64,000 bases of DNA from Planctomycetota bacterium (GTDB lineage: Bacteria; Planctomycetota; PLA2; JAEUHO01), in NCBI GenBank assembly GCA_965223505.1, contig CBDCWP010000041.1, positions 100,994 through 164,993 on the forward strand. The letters are read 5' to 3'. The translations under genes and the position numbers were made by a program. The notes under the pieces are model-generated. The model ran no database searches. It saw only the letters and a program-made list of their open reading frames with translations, and was not told where the DNA came from. Shown here one piece after another: positions 8,779 to 21,023 of this stretch. Each line of letters starts with the position of its first letter. Position 1 is the first letter of the stretch.

Positions 8779-9012
8779 TCAGACCTTCGCGGAGACCTCG
8801 TCGAGGATTTGGCGTTCGTCCGGGAACTCACCGGTTTCGAGCTTCGAGTAGATCTGCTCGTCATCGACGAACACCTCGAAACAGCCACCCCCGCGGGGTT
8901 CGAGCTCGAGGGACGTGATGTTGCGCTTCAGGCTTTCCAGGAGCAGCGACGTCAAACTGACGGCTTGCGGCTCATAGTTTCAGACCGAGCAGAATTGAAT
9001 CCGGATCTTCAT
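8779..9012 (-). CDS. SelT/SelW/SelH (Rdx) family selenoprotein, 77 aa, Sec encoded by TGA at 8982-8980
   Basis: MKIRIQFCSV[TGA]NYEPQAVSLTSLLLESLKRNITSLELEPRGGGCFEVFVDDEQIYSKLETGEFPDERQIL: CxxU plus GxFEV...YSK...FPD Rdx motifs. GGAG RBS. Missed by ORF track. Confidence 0.92.
8941..8973 (-). promoter_or_regulatory. Bacterial SECIS-like stem-loop of the SelW gene
   Basis: CGTCA-GTT-TGACG apical hairpin (8962-8950) with G-first loop 22 nt after UGA; GAGC/GCTC lower stem. Confidence 0.7.
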
Positions 9013-10403: not shown

Positions 10404-11750
10404 ATGGACGCCAACCTGCCGGTCCACTTCGGACGACGCGTCATCGCGAGCATCGTGTTGATCGCGGTGGTGCTGTTCGCCGGGTTCACGGGCTACAAGA
10501 AGCTCGCGGGCATGCGCGAGGATAGCGCGCGCTCGGCCGGCGACGTCCCGCCCCCGCTGGTCAGGCAGGGCGTGGCGGCGCGCGGGGACTACAAGGAGAC
10601 GCTGCGCGGCTACGGGCGCGCCCGGGCGATTCGCCGCACGAGCGTTTCCGCCGAGGTCGCCGGAACGATCACCTGGGTTGCGCCCGCGCTGGAGGCGGGC
10701 GCTGCGATCGAGTTCGATCCGCCGGCGCGCACCAACGGGGACGCGCCGAAGAACGGAGACCGGCCGCCCGCGGGGCCCGAGGTCGTGCGCATCGACGACG
10801 AGGACTTGCAGGACCTGCACGCCCGCGCGCTCGCCGAACAGGCGGCCGCCGCGTCCGACATTCGCCGGCTCGAGACGCTGCACACGAGCGTCGAAGCGCG
10901 TCTGAAGGTCGCGCAGGAGGAGTACGACGTCGCGACGCGCGAGTACGAGCGCGTCGCGGGACTCGTCGCGCGAGGGCGGCTTGGCAAGAGCGACGCCGAT
11001 CGCGAGCGACTGAAGGTCACGCTGCGTGAGCGGGCGCTGCTGGAGCTGCAGTGGTCGGACGACGAGACCGAGGAGTCGCTGAGGGCCGCGAAGGAGCGGC
11101 TGAAGGCGCGCGAGAAGGACGTCGCGCTGGCCGCGCGAAACATCGAGCGTGCCAAGATCTTCGTTCCGTTCCCGGGCCGCGTCGAGATGCGGCACGTCAA
11201 CCGCGACGACCGCGTCAACATCGGCAGCCCCATGTTCGACATCGTGGACCTGTCCAAGGTCGAGGTGCCGGTGGCGTTGCCCGCCGGGCGCTATGACGAC
11301 GTCGACGTCGGCTCGCCCGTCGTGCTTCATCGCGCGCAAACCGGCGAGGAGCTCTGGAAGGGGTCGGTCGCGCGCAAGTCGCCGCGCATCAACGACGAAG
11401 ACCGCACCTTCTTCGTCTACGTCGAGATCGGCGGCGACGCGACGTCCAATCCGGTGCCGCCCGGCACCTACGTGTTGGCCGAGGTCGACGGGAAGACGCA
11501 CACCGGCGTGGTTGCGGTTCCGCGCGAGGCCTTCGTGGGCAAGTACCTGTTCGTCGTGGACGAGCAGGACGACACGTTCGTCGCGCGGCGGGTCGAGCCG
11601 GAGGTGGAACGTCTGCTCGCCGGCGTCGCGCTGGTGCGCGGCGGCATCGACGACGGCGCGCGCTACGTGCTGACCAACCTCGAGTCGATCGCCGACGGCT
11701 CGGTCATTCGCGTCGCGGAAGACGAGGAGGCGCGCACGGCGTCGAAATGA
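10404..11750 (+). CDS. RND efflux periplasmic adaptor (membrane fusion protein)
   Basis: N-terminal TM; VSAEVAGTI...PFPGRV lipoyl halves; long coiled coil; ATGA overlap with permease. Confidence 0.9.
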   Translation: MDANLPVHFGRRVIASIVLIAVVLFAGFTGYKKLAGMREDSARSAGDVPPPLVRQGVAARGDYKETLRGYGRARAIRRTSVSAEVAGTITWVAPALEAGAAIEFDPPARTNGDAPKNGDRPPAGPEVVRIDDEDLQDLHARALAEQAAAASDIRRLETLHTSVEARLKVAQEEYDVATREYERVAGLVARGRLGKSDADRERLKVTLRERALLELQWSDDETEESLRAAKERLKAREKDVALAARNIERAKIFVPFPGRVEMRHVNRDDRVNIGSPMFDIVDLSKVEVPVALPAGRYDDVDVGSPVVLHRAQTGEELWKGSVARKSPRINDEDRTFFVYVEIGGDATSNPVPPGTYVLAEVDGKTHTGVVAVPREAFVGKYLFVVDEQDDTFVARRVEPEVERLLAGVALVRGGIDDGARYVLTNLESIADGSVIRVAEDEEARTASK

Positions 11751-14700
11751 ACCTCCCGCGCTTCTCCGTACGCAATCCCGTACCGGTCAACCTGCTGATG
11801 ATCGTCGTGATCTTCGGCGGTCTCGTCGCGGGTAGCGCGATCATCCGCGAGTTCTTCCCGAACATCGAGCCGGAGCTGGTGACGATCACCGTGCCGTATC
11901 CGGGCGCCACGCCCGAGGAGATCGAGCGCTCGGTCACGCGTCTGGTCGAGCGCGAGATCGAGGACGTCGACGGCGTGAAGGAGATTCGCTCGAGCGTCTT
12001 CGAGGGTCTCACGGTGATCGCAATCGAGCTCGACGACGGGGTCGATCGCAACCGCGTCGTCAACGACCTGCGCGGCGAGGTCGACAAGGTCATCCCGGAC
12101 CTGCCGGACGACGCGGAGGAGCCGGAGATCTCCGAGGCGCGGCCGTTCATCCCCGTGATCGCGGTCGTCGTGTCCGGGGACGTGACCGAAGACAAGCTCC
12201 ACACCGTGGTCGAGCAGGTCCAGGACGAGTTGCTGGACCTCGAGGAGGTCACCGAGTCGCTGGTGACCGGCTTCCGGAAGCGCGAGTTCCTAGTGGAGAT
12301 CCAGCCGGACCGCCTCGAGGAGTACGGCATCACTTTCGAGCAGGTGGGACGCGCGGTCGGCGCGCTCAACGTCGACGTCCCGGGCGGACAGCTCAAGGGT
12401 GACCGCACGAACATCCGCGTGCGCACGGTCGGCGAGGAGCGCGTGACCCACGAGCTCGAGAATCGCGTGGTGCTCGCGAGTCCCGACGGCACCGCGGTTC
12501 GGCTGGGCGACGTCGCGCGCGTGATGCCGGGCTTCGAGGACAAGACGGAGCGCGGCAGCTTCCTGCGGATTCGCGAGACCGACTCGACGACGGCGACGCG
12601 AAAAGACGAGCGCGCGCCGACGACCGGTCAGTCCGCCGCGTCGATCACGGTGTTCAAGACGCCCGAGCAGGACGCGATCAAGATCGCAGAGCGCGTGCGC
12701 GCCTTCGTCGCCGACGCGCCGACGCGCATGGGCGGCGCGGTCAAGCTCGAGACGACGACGGACCTGTCGCGCCTGATCCAGCAGCGCATCGACCTGATGA
12801 CGCGCAACGCGATCGCCGGGCTGATCCTGGTGCTGATCTGCCTGGCCGTGTTCCTGGAGCTGCGCATCGCGATCTGGGTCGCGCTCGGCCTGGGCTTCGC
12901 CTTCATGGGCACGTTCATCGTGATGTACTTCACGGGCCAGACGATCAACCTCATCAGCCTGTTCGGCTTGATCGTCGTGCTGGGCCTGATCGTCGACGAC
13001 GCCATCGTCATCGCGGAGAACATCTTCCGCAGGCGGCGGGAGGGAATGCCGCCGCTCGAAGCCGCGGAGAAGGGCACGAACGAGGTCGCCGTGCCGGTGA
13101 TCACGGCGGTGCTCACGACGTGCGCGGCATTCGGTCCCCTGGCGTTCATCGAAGGCCGGATGGGCGACTTCCTGGGTGTCTTGCCGGGCGTCGTCATCTG
13201 CGCGCTGGGCGTCTCGCTCATCGAGGCGTTCCTGATCCTGCCGCGGCACCTCGCGCACGGACGCCACGGCCCGCCCTCCGACAACGCGTTCTCGCGGTTC
13301 TTCGCCAAGTGGCGCACGGTGCGACATCGGTTCTTCGAGGAGACGTTGCCAGGCATCCTGGGGCGGTCGCTGCGCTTCCTCATTCGCTGGCGGTACGTGT
13401 CGGTCGCCACGATGTTCGTCACGGTCATTCTGATGGCCGGGCTGGTCGTCGGCGGCATCGTTCCGTTCGTCCTGCTGCAGGACACCGATGCCGAGACGAT
13501 CACGTCGAAGCTGGAAATGGCGGCCGGTACGCCGGAGGCGCGCACGATCGAGACGCTGTCGAGGATCGAGCAGATCGTCGCGGCGCAGCCCGAGGTCGGC
13601 ACGGTCTTCACCGTCGTCGGCACGTCCTTCGGCGATCGCGGCAGACAGGTCGCTTCGGACCCCGCGGTCGTCGGACAGATCACGATCGAGCTCTTGTCCG
13701 CCGAGAGCCGCGAGCTGGACGGTCTGCGCACGTCGACCGACCTGTTGACGGCACTTCGGCGCGAGACGGCGCAGCTCCCCGGCGTGCGTCGGATTTCGTT
13801 CACCTCCCAGGGCGGCGGTCCGCAGGGCGCCGACCTCGAGGTGCGCGTGCGCAGCACGAACCTCGAGGACCTGCGGAAGGGCGTCGCGTACGTGCGCGAC
13901 AAGATGGCTGCGTTCTCCGGCGTCTCGGAGATCTACGACGACCTCGAGCTGGGAAAGCTCGAAGCCCGGCTGCGCCTGCGGCCCGAGGCCCGGCTGATGG
14001 GGCTGAGCACCGTCGATGTCGCCGTGCAGGTGCGGCACGCGCTGTTCGGGTTCGAGGCGCAGGACCTGCAGATCGGCAACGAAGAGGTGACGGTGCGCGT
14101 GATGCTGCCGGAGCAGCGACGACGCAACCTGGAGGACCTCGGGACGCTTCGCATCGCGCTGCCGAACGGGCGCCGAGTTCCCATCGAAGAGCTCGTCACG
14201 TTCACGACGGACCGCGGGTACGCGTCGCTCTCGCGCGTCGACGGCAAGCGCGCGGCGACGATCAAGGCCGAGGTCGATCAGCGCACGGCGAACACGGCGC
14301 AGATCACGGCGGAGCTGCAGCGGGACATCGCGGACATCGGCGAGCGCTTTCCGGGCGTATCGGTGACGTTCGAAGGCGCGCGCAAGGAGACGCGCGAGTC
14401 GGTCGGCTCGCTCTTCTACCTGTTCCCGGCCGCCCTGCTGTTCATCTTCGCGATCATCGCCGTGCTCTTCCGATCGTATCTGCAGCCGATCGTGGTGATG
14501 GCGGCGATCCCGTTCGCGATGGTGGGCGCGATCGTCGGGCACTTCCTCATGGGGTACCCGTTCACCATCCTCTCGATGATCGGGTTGGTGGCGCTGGCGG
14601 GCATCGTGGTGAACGACGGGCTGATCCTGGTCGACTTCATCAATCGCCGGCGGCGCAAGGGCCAGCAGCTCGAAGCGGCGGTGGTGGACGCGGCGAAGGG

Positions 14701-14992
14701 GCGCATGCGTCCGATCCTGCTCACGTCGATCACGACGTGCGCGGGCCTGGCGCCGCTGATGCTCGAGACCAGCTTCCAGGCGCAGTTCCTGATCCCGATG
14801 GCGGTGTCGATCGTCTTCGGGCTCGCGTTCGCGACCGGCATCATCCTCGTGCTGATCCCGTTGCTCGTGATCATCCTCGAGGACGTGCGGGCGTGTCTGC
14901 GCTGGTTGTTCGGCGGTCCGTGGAGCCGGCAGCTCGGCTACGACCCCGCGGCGGGGGTGGGCGCGTCGAGCAGCGAGCTATCGGACGGCTAG
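11747..14992 (+). CDS. RND efflux permease (AcrB/AcrD/AcrF family)
   Basis: REFFP, YPGATPEEIE, GLIVDDAIVIAENI, GIVVNDGLILVD, RMRPILLTS; 1081 aa. Confidence 0.95.
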   Translation: MNLPRFSVRNPVPVNLLMIVVIFGGLVAGSAIIREFFPNIEPELVTITVPYPGATPEEIERSVTRLVEREIEDVDGVKEIRSSVFEGLTVIAIELDDGVDRNRVVNDLRGEVDKVIPDLPDDAEEPEISEARPFIPVIAVVVSGDVTEDKLHTVVEQVQDELLDLEEVTESLVTGFRKREFLVEIQPDRLEEYGITFEQVGRAVGALNVDVPGGQLKGDRTNIRVRTVGEERVTHELENRVVLASPDGTAVRLGDVARVMPGFEDKTERGSFLRIRETDSTTATRKDERAPTTGQSAASITVFKTPEQDAIKIAERVRAFVADAPTRMGGAVKLETTTDLSRLIQQRIDLMTRNAIAGLILVLICLAVFLELRIAIWVALGLGFAFMGTFIVMYFTGQTINLISLFGLIVVLGLIVDDAIVIAENIFRRRREGMPPLEAAEKGTNEVAVPVITAVLTTCAAFGPLAFIEGRMGDFLGVLPGVVICALGVSLIEAFLILPRHLAHGRHGPPSDNAFSRFFAKWRTVRHRFFEETLPGILGRSLRFLIRWRYVSVATMFVTVILMAGLVVGGIVPFVLLQDTDAETITSKLEMAAGTPEARTIETLSRIEQIVAAQPEVGTVFTVVGTSFGDRGRQVASDPAVVGQITIELLSAESRELDGLRTSTDLLTALRRETAQLPGVRRISFTSQGGGPQGADLEVRVRSTNLEDLRKGVAYVRDKMAAFSGVSEIYDDLELGKLEARLRLRPEARLMGLSTVDVAVQVRHALFGFEAQDLQIGNEEVTVRVMLPEQRRRNLEDLGTLRIALPNGRRVPIEELVTFTTDRGYASLSRVDGKRAATIKAEVDQRTANTAQITAELQRDIADIGERFPGVSVTFEGARKETRESVGSLFYLFPAALLFIFAIIAVLFRSYLQPIVVMAAIPFAMVGAIVGHFLMGYPFTILSMIGLVALAGIVVNDGLILVDFINRRRRKGQQLEAAVVDAAKGRMRPILLTSITTCAGLAPLMLETSFQAQFLIPMAVSIVFGLAFATGIILVLIPLLVIILEDVRACLRWLFGGPWSRQLGYDPAAGVGASSSELSDG

Positions 14993-15027
14993 GCGACGCG
15001 GCTCAGCGCGGCGCCGCGCGGGAGGAC

Positions 15028-15144
15028 TTAGCGCCAGATGTCCGCCGACGGCGGACAGTTCGGTCCCGTTCACCCGCCGGAGGTGCAGCCGGCAAGAAAC
15101 GCGGCCGCAGTGGTGACGACGAGTAGGGCAAGAAGCTTGCGCAT
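15028..15144 (-). CDS. Candidate 38-aa selenocysteine-containing lipopeptide (in-frame TGA at 15072-15070)
   Basis: GGGAG RBS; MRKLLALLVVTTAAAFLAG|CTSGG[TGA]TGPNCPPSADIWR-TAA; canonical LAGC lipobox; SECIS-like hairpin follows TGA. Confidence 0.65.
15039..15057 (-). promoter_or_regulatory. SECIS-like hairpin downstream of TGA 15072-15070
   Basis: TGTCCGCC-GTC-GGCGGACA perfect 8-bp stem; G-first 3-nt loop starting 20 nt after UGA; no U-tract. Confidence 0.55.
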
Positions 15145-15209
15145 GAATGTCTCCCTCGAGGCGGCGCAAGGGTGGGCTGCCGCGTCGATTCCGTATGCCT
15201 TGCTTCCCG

Positions 15210-15234
15210 TACGTCCCGCGCAACAGGAAGTTGG
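15210..15234 (-). promoter_or_regulatory. Possible ECF-type promoter upstream of the lipopeptide gene
   Basis: ccAAC-N16-CGTA matches the generic ECF AAC/CGT consensus; motif is short, so chance match is possible. Confidence 0.3.
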
Positions 15235-15242
15235 TCAGGAAA

Positions 15243-16802
15243 TCAATCGGCTTCGAAGAGCGCCTTCGCCACCGCGGTGTCGATCTTGGCACCGACGTCG
15301 GTCTCGGCGGTGAGGAGGGTCGCGTTGTCGTAGGCGGCCGCGGCGGCCTGGGCGAGCGCGTGCGCGTCACCGAATCCGACGAACGCGAGCTTGTGCGACG
15401 CCACGAGTCGTGCCGGCGCGGCGTCGATGTAGCGCTCGGGGTCCTTCACGCCGGCAGGCAGGATCAGCACCCCCATGCCGCGGTCTACGGCGACGTTCAC
15501 GAGGCCGTGGAAAGCGCCGAACGAGCGCTCGGAGCGGAACACGACGAGCAGGCCCTTGAACAAGCCGCGCGCGCCGGGCGCGACCATGGCCTCCTTGCCC
15601 CCGACGCGGATGCGCGTGGGCAGCGCCTGGTTGCCGAGATCGGCCGGTAGGCGGGTGCCTTCGCCGGCGATGCCGAGGATGGCGTCCGTGGCCGCGCGGG
15701 AGAGCACGGCGCACTCGAGTCGATCTTCGAGCTTCTTCAGGTCCTCGAGCAGATCGTCGGCGCCGTTGGCTTGCATGAGGCGTAGGCAGCCGAGCACGAC
15801 GTAGCCTTGCTCGCTCTCGACGCGCAATGCCTCGACGTCCCCCATCAGGATCCCGCGCAGCAGATCACGGCAGGCCTGATGCGGTTCGGCCGAGACCAGC
15901 GCCTCGGCGCTGGCACTGCGCGCTTCGGGATGCTTGTCGAGCGCCATGACGAGCCGGCGCAGCAGATCACCGGTGTCCTTGACGCCGTAGCGGCCGAGGA
16001 AGCGCGCGGTGACCTCCGCGTTGTGACGAAGCCCGTCGCTGGAGACGCTCTCGAAGGTGTCGTCGGAGTCGAGGAACGACTCGAGGTCGCTGCTCGCGCT
16101 CGTGAGCGAGCGAAACTCGTTGCTGCGACGAACGAGCTCCATCGACTCTTCGGCGGTGCGGTCGGCGCCGTCCCACGGCTGGACACCGTCCAGATGCACG
16201 ATGCCGAAGTGGTCGCCGTGCTCAACGACGCGGATGTAGCGCTCGCCGTCGTAGCGCCCGAACAGCGCGACGCGCTGGCCCGGTTGGATGCTGGCGGGAA
16301 AGCGGCAGGAGCGCCCTTTGGCGTCGCCGAAGATCGTCTCCTCGACGCGCAGACGCAGCACGCCGTTGAAGCGCTCAGTGGTGCCGATCAGCAACACGTC
16401 GCTCGAGCGGGCGAGGTCCTTCGCCGAGATCTGCTGTGCGGCGTAGGCCGTCGGCAGGAACAGGTCGTCGTCGGCCTGGTTGAAAAACGCGACCGACGCG
16501 CCGACGGCGACGAGCACGCAGGCGGCGACGGCGAGGCGGGGCAGCGTGAGTGCTCGCTTGCGGCGCGCGACTCGCTCCGGCTGGCCGGTGACGGCGCGCA
16601 GGATGTTGTCCTTGACGTGGCACGGCGCGGGCTTGGGATCGACGGCCTTGCGTACGAGGCGCACCATCTCTTCGGCTTCGCGGTACTGACGCGCCCAATC
16701 GGGCGAGGTGCGGATCAGGTGTTCGAGCCGCGCCTCTTCTTCGGGCGTGAGGACGCCGGCCAGGTGTCGATCGATCAGTTGCTTGTCATCCGAGGTGTTC
16801 AT
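15243..16802 (-). CDS. Putative anti-sigma factor with TM helix and large extracytoplasmic (HEAT-like) region
   Basis: N-terminal anti-sigma-like LIDRHLAGVLTPEEEARLEHLI; single TM; TGATG coupling to the ECF sigma. Confidence 0.8.
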   Translation of the reverse strand: MNTSDDKQLIDRHLAGVLTPEEEARLEHLIRTSPDWARQYREAEEMVRLVRKAVDPKPAPCHVKDNILRAVTGQPERVARRKRALTLPRLAVAACVLVAVGASVAFFNQADDDLFLPTAYAAQQISAKDLARSSDVLLIGTTERFNGVLRLRVEETIFGDAKGRSCRFPASIQPGQRVALFGRYDGERYIRVVEHGDHFGIVHLDGVQPWDGADRTAEESMELVRRSNEFRSLTSASSDLESFLDSDDTFESVSSDGLRHNAEVTARFLGRYGVKDTGDLLRRLVMALDKHPEARSASAEALVSAEPHQACRDLLRGILMGDVEALRVESEQGYVVLGCLRLMQANGADDLLEDLKKLEDRLECAVLSRAATDAILGIAGEGTRLPADLGNQALPTRIRVGGKEAMVAPGARGLFKGLLVVFRSERSFGAFHGLVNVAVDRGMGVLILPAGVKDPERYIDAAPARLVASHKLAFVGFGDAHALAQAAAAAYDNATLLTAETDVGAKIDTAVAKALFEAD

Positions 16803-17365
16803 CACTCGCTCACCAGGTGTTTGAGCTGCGACCGCAGTACGCGGTTCGCGCGGAAGATCTGACTGACGACCGTGCCGACGGGGACCCCCAGCATGCGGCT
16901 GATCGTCTTGACCGGCAGTCCCTGCCCGTAGCGCAGGAGGACGACCGGTCGAAAGTGTTCGGGAAGAGAGGCGATGGCGGCGTGGATCTGCGTGCGCGTC
17001 GACGCGCGATCGTTGAAGCGGCTGTCGTCGTCCGCGCCTTCGTCGGGCAGGACGGAGGCGAGGTCGTCGCTGAGCGCGGGGCGCCGGGGTCGGCGGCGAG
17101 CGATCTCGACGCAGCTTCGAACGACGATGGTGAACAGCCACCCGCCGAAGCGAGCGGGGTCGCGCAGGTGATCGAGCTTGCGAAACGCTAGGATGAACGC
17201 GTCCTGTGCTGCGTCTTCGGCGTCGCCCCAGTTGCGGGTGCGTTGGTAGGCGAGGGCGAGCGCTTGACTCCAGTGCCGGTCGACGATCCGGTCGAAGGCC
17301 TCGCGCCGTCCGGCGCGGGCTTCTTCGACGAGCTGTGCGTCGGTCGGGACGTGGACTCCGGACAT
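16802..17365 (-). CDS. ECF RNA polymerase sigma-70 factor
   Basis: Region 2 DAEDAAQDAFILAF...FGGWLFTI; region 4 LPEHFRPVVLLRY...LGVPVGTVVSQIFRA; GGGGAG RBS. Confidence 0.92.
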   Translation of the reverse strand: MSGVHVPTDAQLVEEARAGRREAFDRIVDRHWSQALALAYQRTRNWGDAEDAAQDAFILAFRKLDHLRDPARFGGWLFTIVVRSCVEIARRRPRRPALSDDLASVLPDEGADDDSRFNDRASTRTQIHAAIASLPEHFRPVVLLRYGQGLPVKTISRMLGVPVGTVVSQIFRANRVLRSQLKHLVSE

Positions 17366-17716
17366 GAACTCCCCTTCCCGCGCGGAGGCGGGAAACGAAC
17401 CGCAAAGTACCGCTTCAAGGACGCAGGCCCGTGGGGCCCAATTGCTGCAATTGCACGCCACGGGCGCGCATCGCGGGGCTCGCGACGCCGACCGTCGGGA
17501 CGAAAGGCCCTCCGGGGCCCCCCATACGTCACATCGCGCGAGCGCGGCGGGGGGATACGGACTCTCGAAACCGTGTGATGCCGGCGATCCAGGCGCGGTC
17601 GAGCGTCGCTCCTGCGAGTCGTGCGTCGGGAGGCCGCCCGGGCTCGGCGCGCGCAAGTCACGCAATGCGCCGTCGTCCAATGCTTGCAGTCGGCGTTGTT
17701 TCTGGAGGGCGTTGCG

Positions 17717-18120: not shown

Positions 18121-18207
18121 TGGTGGGCCCGCTGGGACTCGAACCCAGATGGGCTTGCGCCCCGCGGATTTTAAGTCCGCTGCGTATACCAATTCCGCCA
18201 CAGGCCC
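18121..18207 (-). tRNA. tRNA-Leu (anticodon UAA)
   Basis: GGGCCTG...GCGGA-CT-TAA-AA-TCCGC, long variable arm, GGTTCGAGTCC, encoded CCA; 87 nt. Confidence 0.97.
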
Positions 18208-18310: not shown

Positions 18311-18384
18311 GGCACCGTGGCCGAGTGGTTAGGCAACGGATTGCAAATCCGTGTACTCCGGTTCGATTCCGGACGGTGCCTCCA
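18311..18384 (+). tRNA. tRNA-Cys (anticodon GCA)
   Basis: GGCACCG...ACGGA-TT-GCA-AA-TCCGT...GGTTCGATTCC...CGGTGCC-T-CCA; U73 discriminator; 74 nt. Confidence 0.97.
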
Positions 18385-18707
18385 TCTTCCGCGCTCGGCG
18401 CTGATTGTTCCGCCCTGTGCGAGTCAGTCGGCTTCGGTATCTGCTCGGTCGTAGCGCCTGGCGCCCACTGACAACGAGACGGCAAGCGCCCGCGCATACG
18501 ATCCGCTTCGCGGAGATACGGAGCCCGTATCTGCGCAATATTCGTCGATCGCGGCCCGTTGAACATCGAACAGAAAATCCGGGCTCGGTATCACGCCGCG
18601 AGGCGACGAAACACCGGTCGGCCTTCTCCGCCCTACCTTCCGAGAGAGACTCCGCCGCCGGCGAGTGGTCCCTCCCGCCCACTTGCTACAACGGCGGAGA
18701 TGCTGTG

Positions 18708-21023
18708 ATGTTCCTGAAACGCGAGAAACTGTTCGTGAGCTACGCGAGCGACAACGACAGCTTCGTTCGAGACGAGGTGCTCCCGCAAGTCAAGCGCGGG
18801 AGGCGCGACCCGTGGTTCGCGCCGAAGAACATGGACGGCGGCGTCAACTGGCGCATGGAGCTGCTCGACGGGTTGGAGACCTGCGATCGCCTCCTCGTCG
18901 TGGTGTCGAGAGAGTCTCAAGCCAGCGACTACGTCCGAGACGAGGTCGCCCATGCCGCCAGGCGGCTGCTGGAGAAGCGGGCTAGGCTCGACGCGCGACG
19001 GGTCCACAGAGCCATCCTACCGGTGAAGCTCGATCCCCGTGACGAGTTCGGGCAGACGCCGGAAGACCGCGACCTGCGAGAGGGCAACCCGCAAGCCGAC
19101 GTCAATCCCTATCAGATCCATCCATACCTGACACTCGTCAACTACATCGAGATGCCGCACAGCGCGGCGCTGAACAAGAAGCTCGACCCCGAGACGGGGC
19201 GCTATCTGCACGATCCCGGCGAACTGACGCGGGCGCAGCGCGAGTCGATCCGTGAGTACGTGGAACAGCGCACTGAAGCGCGGGAACGCCTGCTCAAGGC
19301 GATTCGAAACCCGGATGTCCTGCATTGGGGCTTCAAACGATTCGGCCGGATGCTCGCGACGTTCGCGAGTCCGACGTTCCAGCGCTTCGCGCTCGCGTTC
19401 GGCGTCGTCGTTGCGATCTTCGCACTGCTACAGCTGCCGACGAGTCTCTTCTGGAGCGACGAGGTCGTGGACGTCGCACGTGCACCGTCGCTTCGCATCA
19501 CAGCCAACGGAACGACCCTTCCGGTCGATCGGGTGGCCGCCGCGCAAGGCATCCCCCTCGATCTGCGCGACGGTCCGATGAACCTGCTCATCGAAGCGCG
19601 CACCCGCGACGGGGAACCGGCCCGAGCCAGCATCACGTTTCGTCCCGACGCGGAGGCTCTGGCGGCCGCGCAGCCGCACGTGCCGCCGGCCGATGATGGC
19701 GCAACGTCGGACGTGACCGAGGTCGAGCCCGCAGCGACGCTCGACCAACCTACGTACGAAGCGACGGCGCCGACGATCGAGTACCGACTCGAGCGGAGCG
19801 GCGCTTGGAAGCAGCTCGCCGAGGGAGCGGGCATTCCGGTCGGGCCCGGCGACACCCCGCTCTACATCCGGTCCAGCGCCGGCGGCGATCCCACCTCGAC
19901 CCACGCGATCCTGCAGCCGGAACCCAGCGCGCAAGCGCCCACGAAATCAGACCCGGCACAGGACCCGCGCAAGTCCACCGAGACCCATTCCACAGAGACG
20001 CCGACGCTGCCCGACGTCCGGATCGTCTTCGAGACGACGCCGAAGACCGCGTTGGTGGATTCCGAGAGCGGGTTGCGCATCGACGTGGGTGCGCAGATCC
20101 AGCTCATGGCGCGGGCCGAGACGATGGACGGCACGGTGCTCGAGCGTGCCGCGGTGACGCTGAACCCGCTGGCGCCTTCGATCGAGTTCATCAAGATGAC
20201 GCAAGGCGACGACGGCAAGTGGGACGAGGAGCCTTTGGTAGGCGCCGACGAACAGGCGCTTCGTTCGGGGCGCCCGATTCCGACGCTTTCCGTGGAAGCG
20301 GATGACGTCACGAGGCTCGGCATGCGCGTGACCGATGGCGCCGGCAAGCTCACCGCGCGTTACGTCACGCTCGACGCCGTACCTCCGCCGCTCAGCGACA
20401 CCGAGATCAAGGTCCAGTTCCTGGTGCCACTCTTGGACGGATTCCCTCGGACCCAGAAGGTGAAGACGGTCGATGGCTCGGTGGAGTGGAGCAAGATCCC
20501 GGACGTCGCCTTCCCGATCGGCGCGGACGACCCGGTGCTGCAGGTCGTCGCGCGCGCTCCCGGGGGCAAGTGGGCCACCCGGCGCGTTCGCATTCGACCG
20601 CCCGGCGTGACCAAGACATTGCCGCCGATCGAGACGGATCGCGTCGTCGAGGCGCCGCCCGCCGTGCCGGCTCCGGTGATCAAGATCTACAAGGCGGTGC
20701 AACGCGAGCGGGCGCCGGAGTGGATCGACGTGTGGGGCAGCTTCGATCGTCCGGCGACGGCGCTGTCGCTCAACCGCTTCGACATCAGCCGTTACATCCT
20801 GAATCCGGAACGCATGCGTTTCCGCCTGACGATTCGAACGGGCCAGGTCCTGAACCTGCGCCGCCCGATGGTCTTCGAGATGCTGGACGAGCACGGACTC
20901 ACCGCCTGCGCGACGCTGGTGCCCGTCATCGTGCCGGTCACGGTCACTGTGCCCGTGCCGGTGCCGGTGCCCGGCGACGACGGCGGACTCGAACACGGCG
21001 ACCTGTTCTTCGACGACGGCTAG
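18708..21023 (+). CDS. TIR domain - TM helix - repeated Ig-like ectodomain protein
   Basis: TIR_2 motifs LFVSYAS, PWF, LLVVVSRES..SDYVRDEV; TM FALAFGVVVAIFALLQL; about 6 beta-rich modules. Confidence 0.85.
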   Translation: MFLKREKLFVSYASDNDSFVRDEVLPQVKRGRRDPWFAPKNMDGGVNWRMELLDGLETCDRLLVVVSRESQASDYVRDEVAHAARRLLEKRARLDARRVHRAILPVKLDPRDEFGQTPEDRDLREGNPQADVNPYQIHPYLTLVNYIEMPHSAALNKKLDPETGRYLHDPGELTRAQRESIREYVEQRTEARERLLKAIRNPDVLHWGFKRFGRMLATFASPTFQRFALAFGVVVAIFALLQLPTSLFWSDEVVDVARAPSLRITANGTTLPVDRVAAAQGIPLDLRDGPMNLLIEARTRDGEPARASITFRPDAEALAAAQPHVPPADDGATSDVTEVEPAATLDQPTYEATAPTIEYRLERSGAWKQLAEGAGIPVGPGDTPLYIRSSAGGDPTSTHAILQPEPSAQAPTKSDPAQDPRKSTETHSTETPTLPDVRIVFETTPKTALVDSESGLRIDVGAQIQLMARAETMDGTVLERAAVTLNPLAPSIEFIKMTQGDDGKWDEEPLVGADEQALRSGRPIPTLSVEADDVTRLGMRVTDGAGKLTARYVTLDAVPPPLSDTEIKVQFLVPLLDGFPRTQKVKTVDGSVEWSKIPDVAFPIGADDPVLQVVARAPGGKWATRRVRIRPPGVTKTLPPIETDRVVEAPPAVPAPVIKIYKAVQRERAPEWIDVWGSFDRPATALSLNRFDISRYILNPERMRFRLTIRTGQVLNLRRPMVFEMLDEHGLTACATLVPVIVPVTVTVPVPVPVPGDDGGLEHGDLFFDDG
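20979..21021 (+). repeat. 43-bp direct repeat, copy 1 (3' end of TIR gene)
   Basis: gacggcggactcgaacacggcgacctgttcttcgacgacggct; 40/43 identical to 24397-24439. Confidence 0.9.

Follow-up and report, generated by a model that had tools for sequence, protein, structure and literature searches.

We describe here a very small gene on the minus strand, at positions 15144 to 15028, of a 64,000-nucleotide stretch of contig CBDCWP010000041.1 from an uncultured planctomycete (assembly GCA_965223505.1, genome G000 in our numbering; the whole stretch is referred to as the window). The overall best explanation for this locus, and a likely one, is a real, very small selenoprotein gene with selenocysteine (Sec) whose predicted product is a lipidated, exported peptide. 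Its central feature is an in-frame TGA, and sequence comparison makes it very likely that a real peptide is exported in which this UGA stands for Sec. Very probably the gene is the first member of a family of miniature selenoprotein lipoproteins that is missing from the catalogues and would use the known bacterial mechanism of Sec decoding. Gene structure, conservation, the pairing of Sec with Cys among homologues, a hairpin resembling a selenocysteine insertion sequence (SECIS) and the presence of the Sec and lipoprotein machinery were computed, and from them we infer Sec insertion, lipidation and a function. A preliminary description, made from the letters of the window, had proposed such a peptide, and its individual claims are taken up below together with the respective results.

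A tiny lipoprotein gene with an in-frame TGA

Read on the minus strand, the gene encodes MRKLLALLVVTTAAAFLAG followed by C-TSGG-TGA-TGPNC-PPSADIWR-TAA (Table 1). With the TGA translated as Sec (U) the precursor is MRKLLALLVVTTAAAFLAGCTSGG-U-TGPNCPPSADIWR, where TGPNCPPSADIWR is the part between the TGA and the TAA at 15030..15028. The GGGAG ribosome binding site, the lipoprotein signal, the TSGG, the TGA and the TAA listed in the preliminary description were all found at the respective minus-strand positions. Lipoprotein signals were judged by a charged n-region, a hydrophobic h-region and a lipobox of the form [LVI][ASTVI][GAS]C; read from the sequence, the peptide has the n-region M-RK, the h-region LLALLVVTTAAAF and then L-A-G-C. 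The lipobox Cys20 is invariant in every alignment, A3 and A9 included. For the processing of lipoproteins the genome encodes Lgt (136.1 bits) and LspA (80.9 bits), both above their cut-offs. A six-frame scan of the genome returned only two open reading frames (ORFs) with a lipoprotein signal and any stop codon within six codons after the lipobox Cys, the window gene and one on contig C7, and in both the stop is TGA, followed by x4-Cys.

Conservation of the TGA codon and of the peptide downstream

The homologue search, made with the window peptide and then with its profiles, covered 60 relatives, the full set of 40 genomes of the order and a 401-genome sample of the phylum. Matches with in-frame stops or good E-values were translated, and weak ones (E 0.001-0.01) inside long frames were left out. 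Twelve genes of the window type (group A) resulted, spread over 10 of 29 genomes in f1, a family of uncultured Planctomycetota (G000, G003, G005 with two genes, G008, G009, G013, G018 with two genes, G020, G023 and G026). Their common layout is a lipobox Cys, three to five residues that are mainly Gly or Ser, the TGA, four residues, a Cys and usually Pro-Ser-Ala. The TGA and the reading frame are kept in all 12 genes, the TGA always three to five codons past the lipobox Cys, and a Cys follows exactly five codons on in all 12. TAA or TAG at the Sec codon, which would have spoken against the proposal, was found in none of the homologues inspected. In 10 of the 12 genes GGAG, GAGG or AGGA lies at most 25 nt upstream of the start codon.

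The tails beyond the TGA range from 6 to 55 codons. The gene nearest to that of the window, in G008, reads ...QAC-ASGGG-TGA-GPRGC-PTPSASSWR-stop, and the long forms (G005, G018, G026) terminate in (D/E)GG(H/S)GWR-stop. When seven Sec forms were aligned with two Cys forms (alignment A9, see below for the latter), the invariant columns were the lipobox Cys, the Sec/Cys position, the Cys at +5, one Pro and a Trp-Arg pair. This pair is C-terminal in eight of the nine rows, with tails of 13 to 55 codons, and is followed by eight further residues in the gene of G009. Insertions and deletions after the TGA are multiples of three in five of six compared pairs. Thus, the Cys at +5, the Pro and the Trp-Arg pair are the conserved downstream residues that the preliminary description had named as possible support.

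A conserved TGA or Cys at codon 25 had been named as well, and both were obtained. The A7 profile gave five matches at E<=0.001 among 1.84 billion representative proteins. Two of them, P0004 (E 8.5e-6) and P0007 (E 8.7e-4), are tiny lipoproteins of full length in which a Cys stands in the TGA column and GGxGWR forms the C-terminus: P0004 reads ...LLGC-ADGG-C-RSGS-C-GLPS...GVSPYQGRYIEGGHGWR and P0007 reads ...LSGC-ASG-C-ADGS-C-GTPS...IDGGSGWR. Both are singletons from public run assemblies. The top match, P0003 (2,657 aa), shows no single matched stretch and was taken for an artefact of repetitive sequence; the two others are unrelated Ser/Thr-rich lipoproteins. L072/L116 of G028 (CSSTCDGGPC...) was also considered as a Cys form and turned out to be the N-terminus of a 237-aa lipoprotein without further likeness.

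In a word-indexed set of 5.8 billion proteins the A7 profile found a single match, a form cut off exactly at the TGA, which bears out the expectation that gene callers would miss the peptide. P0004 retrieved only itself from this set, and in the ESM Atlas its best values (0.83-0.85) stayed under the level that counts, in clusters named 'lipoprotein' without a family. When metagenomes were scanned for the pattern of the window-type tail (CCGTCGGCG...CTGGCGCTAR), four matches came up, all by chance and none with a signal peptide or the structure of this gene.

A SECIS-like hairpin downstream of the TGA

A stem of 8 bp, formed by TGTCCGCC and GGCGGACA, begins 12 nt after the TGA and closes a GUC loop located 20 nt after it. 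TCTGGCGCTAAG directly follows the hairpin, and there is no T-run. The 8-bp hairpin with its GTC loop, its distance of 20 nt and the missing U-tract are thus present just as originally noted. The 23-nt hairpin folds with -14.0 kcal/mol (z -4.0), and none of 200 shuffled sequences folds as well. Its 19-nt sequence occurs once in the genome. However, 433 of the 106,419 TGA triplets in the genome (0.41%) have, 16-30 nt further on, a G[G/T] loop closed by 8 bp or more, so that a single hairpin of this kind is not significant genome-wide.

Of the group A genes 12 of 12 have, 20-23 nt after the TGA, a loop of 3-5 nt starting with G[G/T] on a stem of 6 bp or more, as compared to 2,538 of the 106,419 genomic TGA triplets (2.4%) for the rule with at least 6 bp. 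The loop is GTC in nine genes and GGTC, GGGC and GGC in one each, the stems comprise six distinct sequences, and eight representative hairpins all fold with -10 to -14.3 kcal/mol. Covariation was analyzed for 11 of the 12 sequences; G018a was omitted because its 4-nt loop broke the register. In this alignment 94.4% of the stem cells are paired as compared to 67.7% in shuffles, both sides have changed at seven of the eight stem pairs checked, none of 500 shuffles reached the observed covariation score, and slid controls came nowhere near the observed values. The covarying hairpin that the proposal called for was thus found.

According to its published consensus, a bacterial SECIS (bSECIS) element has a loop of 3-9 nt with G in the first two loop positions, a stem of 4-16 bp, a spacing of 16-37 nt and an energy of at most -7.5 kcal/mol (PMC13188914, section 5). 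When these rules were applied by a script of our own, the window hairpin agreed with them throughout, in the size of the loop and the place of its G, in the length of the stem, in spacing and in energy, as a bSECIS prediction would have it. At gathering score Rfam lists only two tRNAs in the window and leaves the hairpin unmatched; the hairpin of a SelW gene in the same window is also unmatched, so that the library is blind to SECIS elements of such kind. A scan for intrinsic terminators lists two other sites in 14850..15400 and does not flag the hairpin. Together with the missing T-run this argues, at the sequence level, against the terminator role that had been named as a possible refutation.

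Selenocysteine machinery and other selenoprotein genes of the genome

All components of the Sec machinery that were looked for are present in the genome above their cut-offs, namely selA (507.2 bits), selB (335.7 bits), selD (338.1 bits) and tRNA-Sec (69.2 bits), in line with what the preliminary description had asked to be confirmed. Since selA was detected in 38 of the 40 genomes of the order, the Sec trait is general there and its co-occurrence with the tiny gene is uninformative.

For comparison, eight genes of G000 from known families with one in-frame TGA each were folded (SelW, SelD and six of the Redoxin family). Seven of them, SelW and the Redoxin genes, have stems of 5-7 bp located 20-29 nt downstream of the TGA, with the loop GTT, GTC, GGT or GGTC in six and CGGGC in one; SelD has a 7-bp stem and an 8-nt loop without an early G. 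The SelW gene lies in the window, has its single TGA in the context CSV-U and shows the hairpin CGTCA-GTT-TGACG 22 nt after it, so that the similar geometry (GTT loop, 22 nt) pointed out earlier could be confirmed. This gene is an ordinary known selenoprotein gene, which gene callers would split. The six Redoxin genes, all above the Pfam cut-off, and selD are located on contigs C34, C10, C39, C5, C43, C44 and C8 of G000, whose selenoproteome is thus rich in exported redoxins. Another Redoxin match, the seventh (C7:1492-1830), is weaker and contains two TGA codons.

A sister type and Cys-only relatives

The second ORF of the six-frame scan mentioned above belongs to a shorter type (group B), which is present in 8 of the 29 f1 genomes, G000 included. 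Here the TGA stands directly after the lipobox Cys, ...LTGC-TGA-(S/N)GG(S/G/T/R)-C-G-TAG, which with Sec would give a mature peptide of eight residues with the same U-x4-C spacing. In G000 the gene reads MRWMLSLAMLAVMAAILTGC-TGA-NGGTCG-TAG; a gene for a PDZ-domain protein lies downstream of it and a Cu2_monoox_C-like gene upstream. A pattern scan for group B in a genome collection of 185,579 species returned seven Planctomycetota records and one chance match in Neorhizobium. The group B hairpin has 6-7 bp and the loop AGGT(C) or AGTT(C), is located 19 nt after the TGA and spans the TAG stop into the 3' untranslated region; a relaxed hairpin rule with a background of 4.5% is passed by all eight genes. 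In the last Gly codon a synonymous exchange, GGC or GGG, goes together with a corresponding G/C change on the untranslated 3' side of the stem (four sequences versus four), which points to selection on the RNA structure itself. In a longer lipoprotein, L149 (G006:C8:150125-150199; ...LTGC-C-AGGK-C-IKDPPCKCGENPCC), Cys takes the place of the Sec of group B, and the ORF preceding L149 ends in a similar CIKDPPCC motif. Judged by its sequence, L149 could be a relative rich in Cys that has become part of a larger protein.

Group C comprises Cys-only tiny lipoproteins of the form C-x3-C-x2-C-G-R-stop (e.g. ...AACTSGGGCSTCGG-stop) without matching family models in Pfam or NCBIfam. In G005, G013, G018 and G023 a group C gene lies directly upstream of, and in tandem with, the Sec-containing gene. 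As a control, the stretch behind the corresponding Cys codon was examined in 11 group C genes, one of which had a comparable hairpin.

Genomic neighbourhood

The gene is located in the intergenic region between a convergent permease gene of the resistance-nodulation-division (RND) type (end 14992) and the gene of an anti-sigma-like protein (end 15243), which in turn is preceded by the gene of a sigma factor of the extracytoplasmic function (ECF) type. Within the order only G000, G022 and G027 (3 of 40 genomes) have an orthologue of the anti-sigma protein (E<=1e-20), and the arrangement ECF sigma, anti-sigma, tiny TGA lipoprotein and convergent RND permease is common to all three. Identities to the orthologues are 58-60% for the ECF sigma factor and 43% for the anti-sigma protein (G022, G027), and 65-69% for the RND permease. 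The tiny gene at the anti-sigma locus is of group A in the window and of group B in G022 and G027, which belong to the genus g5. RND orthologues are convergent to group B genes in five g5 genomes; on the three g5 contigs with this arrangement besides those of G022 and G027, the contig ends before the anti-sigma position or shows no match there. The shared anti-sigma/RND locus makes groups A and B positional equivalents and members of one family. The syntenic search downstream of the anti-sigma orthologues, which the preliminary description had suggested, thus did return a tiny lipoprotein ORF with TGA in both other genomes, but of the shorter type.

Elsewhere group A genes follow the gene of a polytopic membrane protein of 576-710 aa, often with a flavin reductase gene downstream (G005, G008, G013, G023), or adjoin the gene of a protein with CarboxypepD_reg repeats (G009, G020). 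The 576-710 aa protein has a multi-pass membrane N-terminal half and a soluble C-terminal half, its gene often has metH nearby, it has no match in Pfam or NCBIfam, and it is unrelated to the anti-sigma protein of the window. The idea of a heavy-metal pump was considered for the neighbouring RND system; the permease scores best as a multidrug type and not as CusA/CzcA, and it was not used to argue for a metal function. Further along the window, at 18405-21023 (+), an open frame of 872 aa with a TIR_2 domain at residues 110-211 comes right after a divergent tRNA-Leu/tRNA-Cys pair (18121-18207 minus, 18311-18384 plus).

Table 1. Positions of the tiny gene, its parts and the other genes discussed (numbering of the window unless a contig or locus is named)
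Feature	Position	Strand	Match or basis
Whole gene, 38 codons + TAA stop; TGA codon 25 read as Sec	15028..15144	-	sequence and homologues
Shine-Dalgarno-like GGGAG, 6 nt before the ATG at 15144	15151..15155	-	sequence
Predicted lipoprotein signal peptide MRKLLALLVVTTAAAFLAG (codons 1-19) and lipobox Cys20 (15087..15085), lipobox L-A-G-C	15085..15144	-	sequence
In-frame TGA, proposed to encode Sec (residue 25 of the precursor, 6 after maturation)	15070..15072	-	homologues
TGT, Cys30, partner in the U-x4-C pair	15055..15057	-	invariant column in alignments A1, A3, A7, A9
SECIS-like hairpin, 8-bp stem TGTCCGCC (15057..15050)/GGCGGACA (15046..15039), loop GUC (15049..15047)	15039..15057	-	folding and covariation
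TGG CGC TAA, C-terminal Trp-Arg and stop codon	15028..15036	-	A9 alignment
SelW/Rdx-family gene, one in-frame TGA in CSV-U context	8791..9009	-	Pfam PF10262, 64.7 bits
RND adaptor gene	10404..11750		
Convergent RND efflux permease	11747..14992	+	Pfam ACR_tran 5e-172, NCBIfam RND_permease_2
Anti-sigma-factor-like membrane protein, 525 aa, upstream of the tiny gene	15243..16820	-	NCBIfam NF052375, 46.6 bits, below cut-off 100
ECF-type sigma-70 factor, approximate start, open frame to 18091	16802..17380	-	Sigma70_r2, r4_2 (residues 270-415), TIGR02937
Group B gene of G000 (locus L056/L144)	C7:129348..129428, outside the window	-	
Group C gene of G000 (other group C loci: L064, L063, L090, L091)	C26:39755, outside the window	+	
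Conserved 576-710 aa protein, directly upstream of the Sec-lipoprotein gene or tandem pair	L107:4545-6275, L106:6620-8395, L110:2690-4822, L111:4905-6644		

Comparison with known families

In agreement with the statement that no such family was recognized, Pfam-A has no family for the group A peptides and none that reaches its cut-off for groups B and C or the Cys homologues. NCBIfam release 20 gave only matches at the level of the signal peptide, below cut-off, for groups A, B and C and the Cys homologues. Nothing similar is among the 119 prokaryotic selenoprotein families of the 2026 catalogue (Table 1 of PMC13188914); this paper does not use the words 'lipoprotein', 'signal peptide' or 'Planctomyc', and a comparable U-x4-C motif is absent from it. 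The word 'lipoprotein' is absent from the main text of the BSepDB and deep-Sep papers as far as it was accessible, and in the accessible part of a preprint lipoproteins are mentioned only for the large SaoX and SaoC proteins (Haft 2022). Among the matches listed in a literature search that paired lipobox with selenocysteine, all appear unrelated by title and abstract.

The tiny gene resembles SelB-decoded genes of the E. coli fdhF type in its in-frame UGA, in a stem that starts after 12 nt and a hairpin loop with G and then U 20 nt on, in the existence of Cys homologues and in the presence of selA, selB, selD and tRNA-Sec. It differs from them in that an enzyme domain is missing, the predicted mature peptide of 19 residues (eight in group B) being without a fold, in that U-x4-C takes the place of the usual UxxC or CxxU, and in that the Sec would lie only a few residues from the lipid anchor. 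Short families or families with a terminal Sec in the catalogue are UXX-star (NF041114, NF041211), KCU-star (NF033934) and the selenobacteriocin TIGR04081 (PMC13188914, Table 1). They are alike in being small or in having the Sec near an end, but their models do not match the tiny lipoproteins. In the star-type families the hairpin is expected to run across the true stop into the 3' untranslated region, like that of group B.

The (U/C)-x4-C spacing is shared with BCP/PrxQ peroxiredoxins. In these enzymes the peroxidatic and the resolving Cys lie four residues apart and form an intramolecular disulfide after attack by peroxide, which offers a plausible chemical model for the cycling of the peptide. 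The resemblance is one of spacing only, as there is neither a peroxiredoxin fold nor a PxxxTxxC context nor homology. Like LptM (NF047847) and YgdI/YgdR (NF033216), the peptide has a very small precursor with a lipobox and a mature N-terminus that is short and rich in Gly and Pro, but the matches are weak and confined to the signal peptide (14.3 bits with a cut-off of 27.7, and 13.1 bits with a cut-off of 42, respectively). To our knowledge neither of these families has a Sec or a Cys pair.

Weighing the alternatives

Several observations weigh against a Sec-containing peptide or limit what can be concluded about it. The peptide family turned up in a single family of uncultured bacteria, and in the 401-genome phylum sample, with 14 candidates scored per genome, no match outside f1 reached E<=1e-4. 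The two Cys homologues are of unknown taxonomy and have modest E-values, and the signal peptide adds to every profile score. Substitutions after the TGA are spread evenly over the codon positions (e.g. 5/6/7 and 9/11/12), and in the signal peptide they concentrate at third positions (e.g. 2/1/9); without a third-position bias the tail gives no clear sign of purifying selection apart from a few conserved residues. As to the hairpin, the 53 nt starting from the TGA fold unremarkably (z -1.17, with 25 of 200 shuffles folding as well), and the covariation alignment is biased towards pairing, as hairpins taken from the hairpin search served as its anchor. A CAVPSAS subgroup makes up six of the 12 genes and has near-identical hairpins, and within it conserved Pro-Ser-Ala codons cannot be told apart from a conserved RNA stem. 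Finally, the neighbourhood differs outside the two genera with the anti-sigma locus, so that no firm function can be derived from the context.

Some of these points would fit a TGA that is an ordinary stop, leaving a 24-codon remnant or no gene at all, with the hairpin as a transcript-end or stability element of the anti-sigma operon or of the convergent RND unit and the downstream likeness caused by RNA constraint. The even substitution pattern of the tail agrees with this, as does the fact that the Pro-Ser-Ala codons coincide with the hairpin loop. Moreover, the gene lies between two convergent transcription units, where terminators are expected, and GC-rich hairpins are common, as the 2.4% of TGA triplets with a similar one show. 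However, an ordinary stop would leave a mature lipoprotein of five residues here and a single Cys in group B, which is implausible, as already argued in the preliminary description. It is also at odds with the retention of the TGA, the Cys at +5 and an in-frame Trp-Arg-stop across tails of 13-55 codons, with full-length Cys homologues that stay open through the TGA position and with long-form ORFs that continue for 30-55 codons beyond the hairpin. The hairpin, in turn, has no T-run and no terminator flag, and the Cys-only relatives mostly do without it (one of 11 has one). We therefore regard an ordinary stop as very improbable.

A role in regulation has to be considered as well, in which the UGA is read through and a selenium-sensing mini-ORF with a functionless peptide tunes the expression of a neighbour or the stability of its mRNA. 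In some relatives a gene does start shortly after, coding for flavin reductase in G005, G013 and G023 and for a beta-lactamase-fold protein in G026, and the almost neutral evolution of the tail would suit a functionless peptide. In the window, on the other hand, no gene follows on the same strand, the next one being the convergent RND permease gene, which also makes the role of a leader peptide unlikely there. A lipobox with an invariant Cys, the U-x4-C spacing and the Trp-Arg end would be pointless in a pure sensor, and Cys homologues cannot sense selenium, so that we consider a purely regulatory mini-ORF very improbable. Recoding of the UGA without SelB, e.g. by insertion of near-cognate Trp or Cys into a real peptide without selenium, appears extremely improbable, as the spacing and loop of the hairpin fit the SelB-type consensus and match seven of the eight folded selenoprotein genes of the genome, the complete Sec machinery is present, and homologues carry Cys, the usual counterpart of Sec, at the aligned position. 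Homologues, hairpin and machinery thus all support the reading of the gene product, with Sec, as a lipid-anchored 19-mer with a U-x4-C pair, as predicted from the sequence at the outset.

Proposed mechanism and function

For a Sec-containing lipopeptide we propose the following course of events. Translation would start at the ATG at 15144, and when the UGA (15072..15070) enters the ribosomal A site, the hairpin with the GUC loop, 12 nt downstream, would recruit SelB with Sec-tRNA(Sec), so that Sec is inserted and 13 further codons are translated up to the TAA. The precursor would then be exported, lipidated by Lgt at Cys20 and cleaved by LspA before this residue, and the product would be the 19-residue lipid-anchored peptide C-TSGG-U-TGPN-C-PPSADIWR. 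As the thiol of the lipidated Cys is blocked, the reactive pair would consist of Sec6 and Cys11 of the mature peptide. These two residues could form a membrane-tethered selenol/thiol couple that either cycles through an intramolecular selenenylsulfide or binds soft metals at the envelope. The (U/C)-x4-C spacing should allow an intramolecular bridge to close, as in BCP/PrxQ, and the Gly, Ser and Pro residues next to the pair point to a flexible loop. Redox or metal handling at the membrane, as put forward in the preliminary description, is therefore a possible function, and the one that we tentatively favour.

In G000 and in g5 the tiny gene is the last one of an ECF sigma/anti-sigma unit that faces an RND operon, and its product may feed into an envelope-stress circuit or be governed by it. 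The sigma/anti-sigma/RND neighbourhood gives weak hints of such a link, against which the varying context elsewhere has to be set. A more far-reaching idea, which we hold to be unlikely, is that the Sec-x4-Cys lipopeptides of 19 and 8 residues are complete stand-alone units and the smallest mature selenoproteins described, serving as membrane-tethered selenol sensors or catalysts by which stress from peroxide, thiols or soft metals is signalled to the ECF anti-sigma factor controlling the facing RND pump. Were it true, these peptides would represent both a new, peptide-sized class of selenoproteins and a new third component of ECF signalling.

Selenoprotein catalogues consist almost wholly of enzyme-sized proteins with Cys homologues in the databases, and a family with products of 8-19 residues is invisible to gene callers and to homology-based selenoprotein finders in the literature examined. 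For at least 20 genes in 15 genomes the annotation would have to be corrected. If the family is real, Sec would occur in peptide-sized, lipid-anchored molecules of the envelope, and the size range of selenoproteins would be extended downwards. The lipid-bearing Cys, the Gly-rich spacer and the U-x4-C pair would then constitute a simple natural scaffold for selenol chemistry at membranes.

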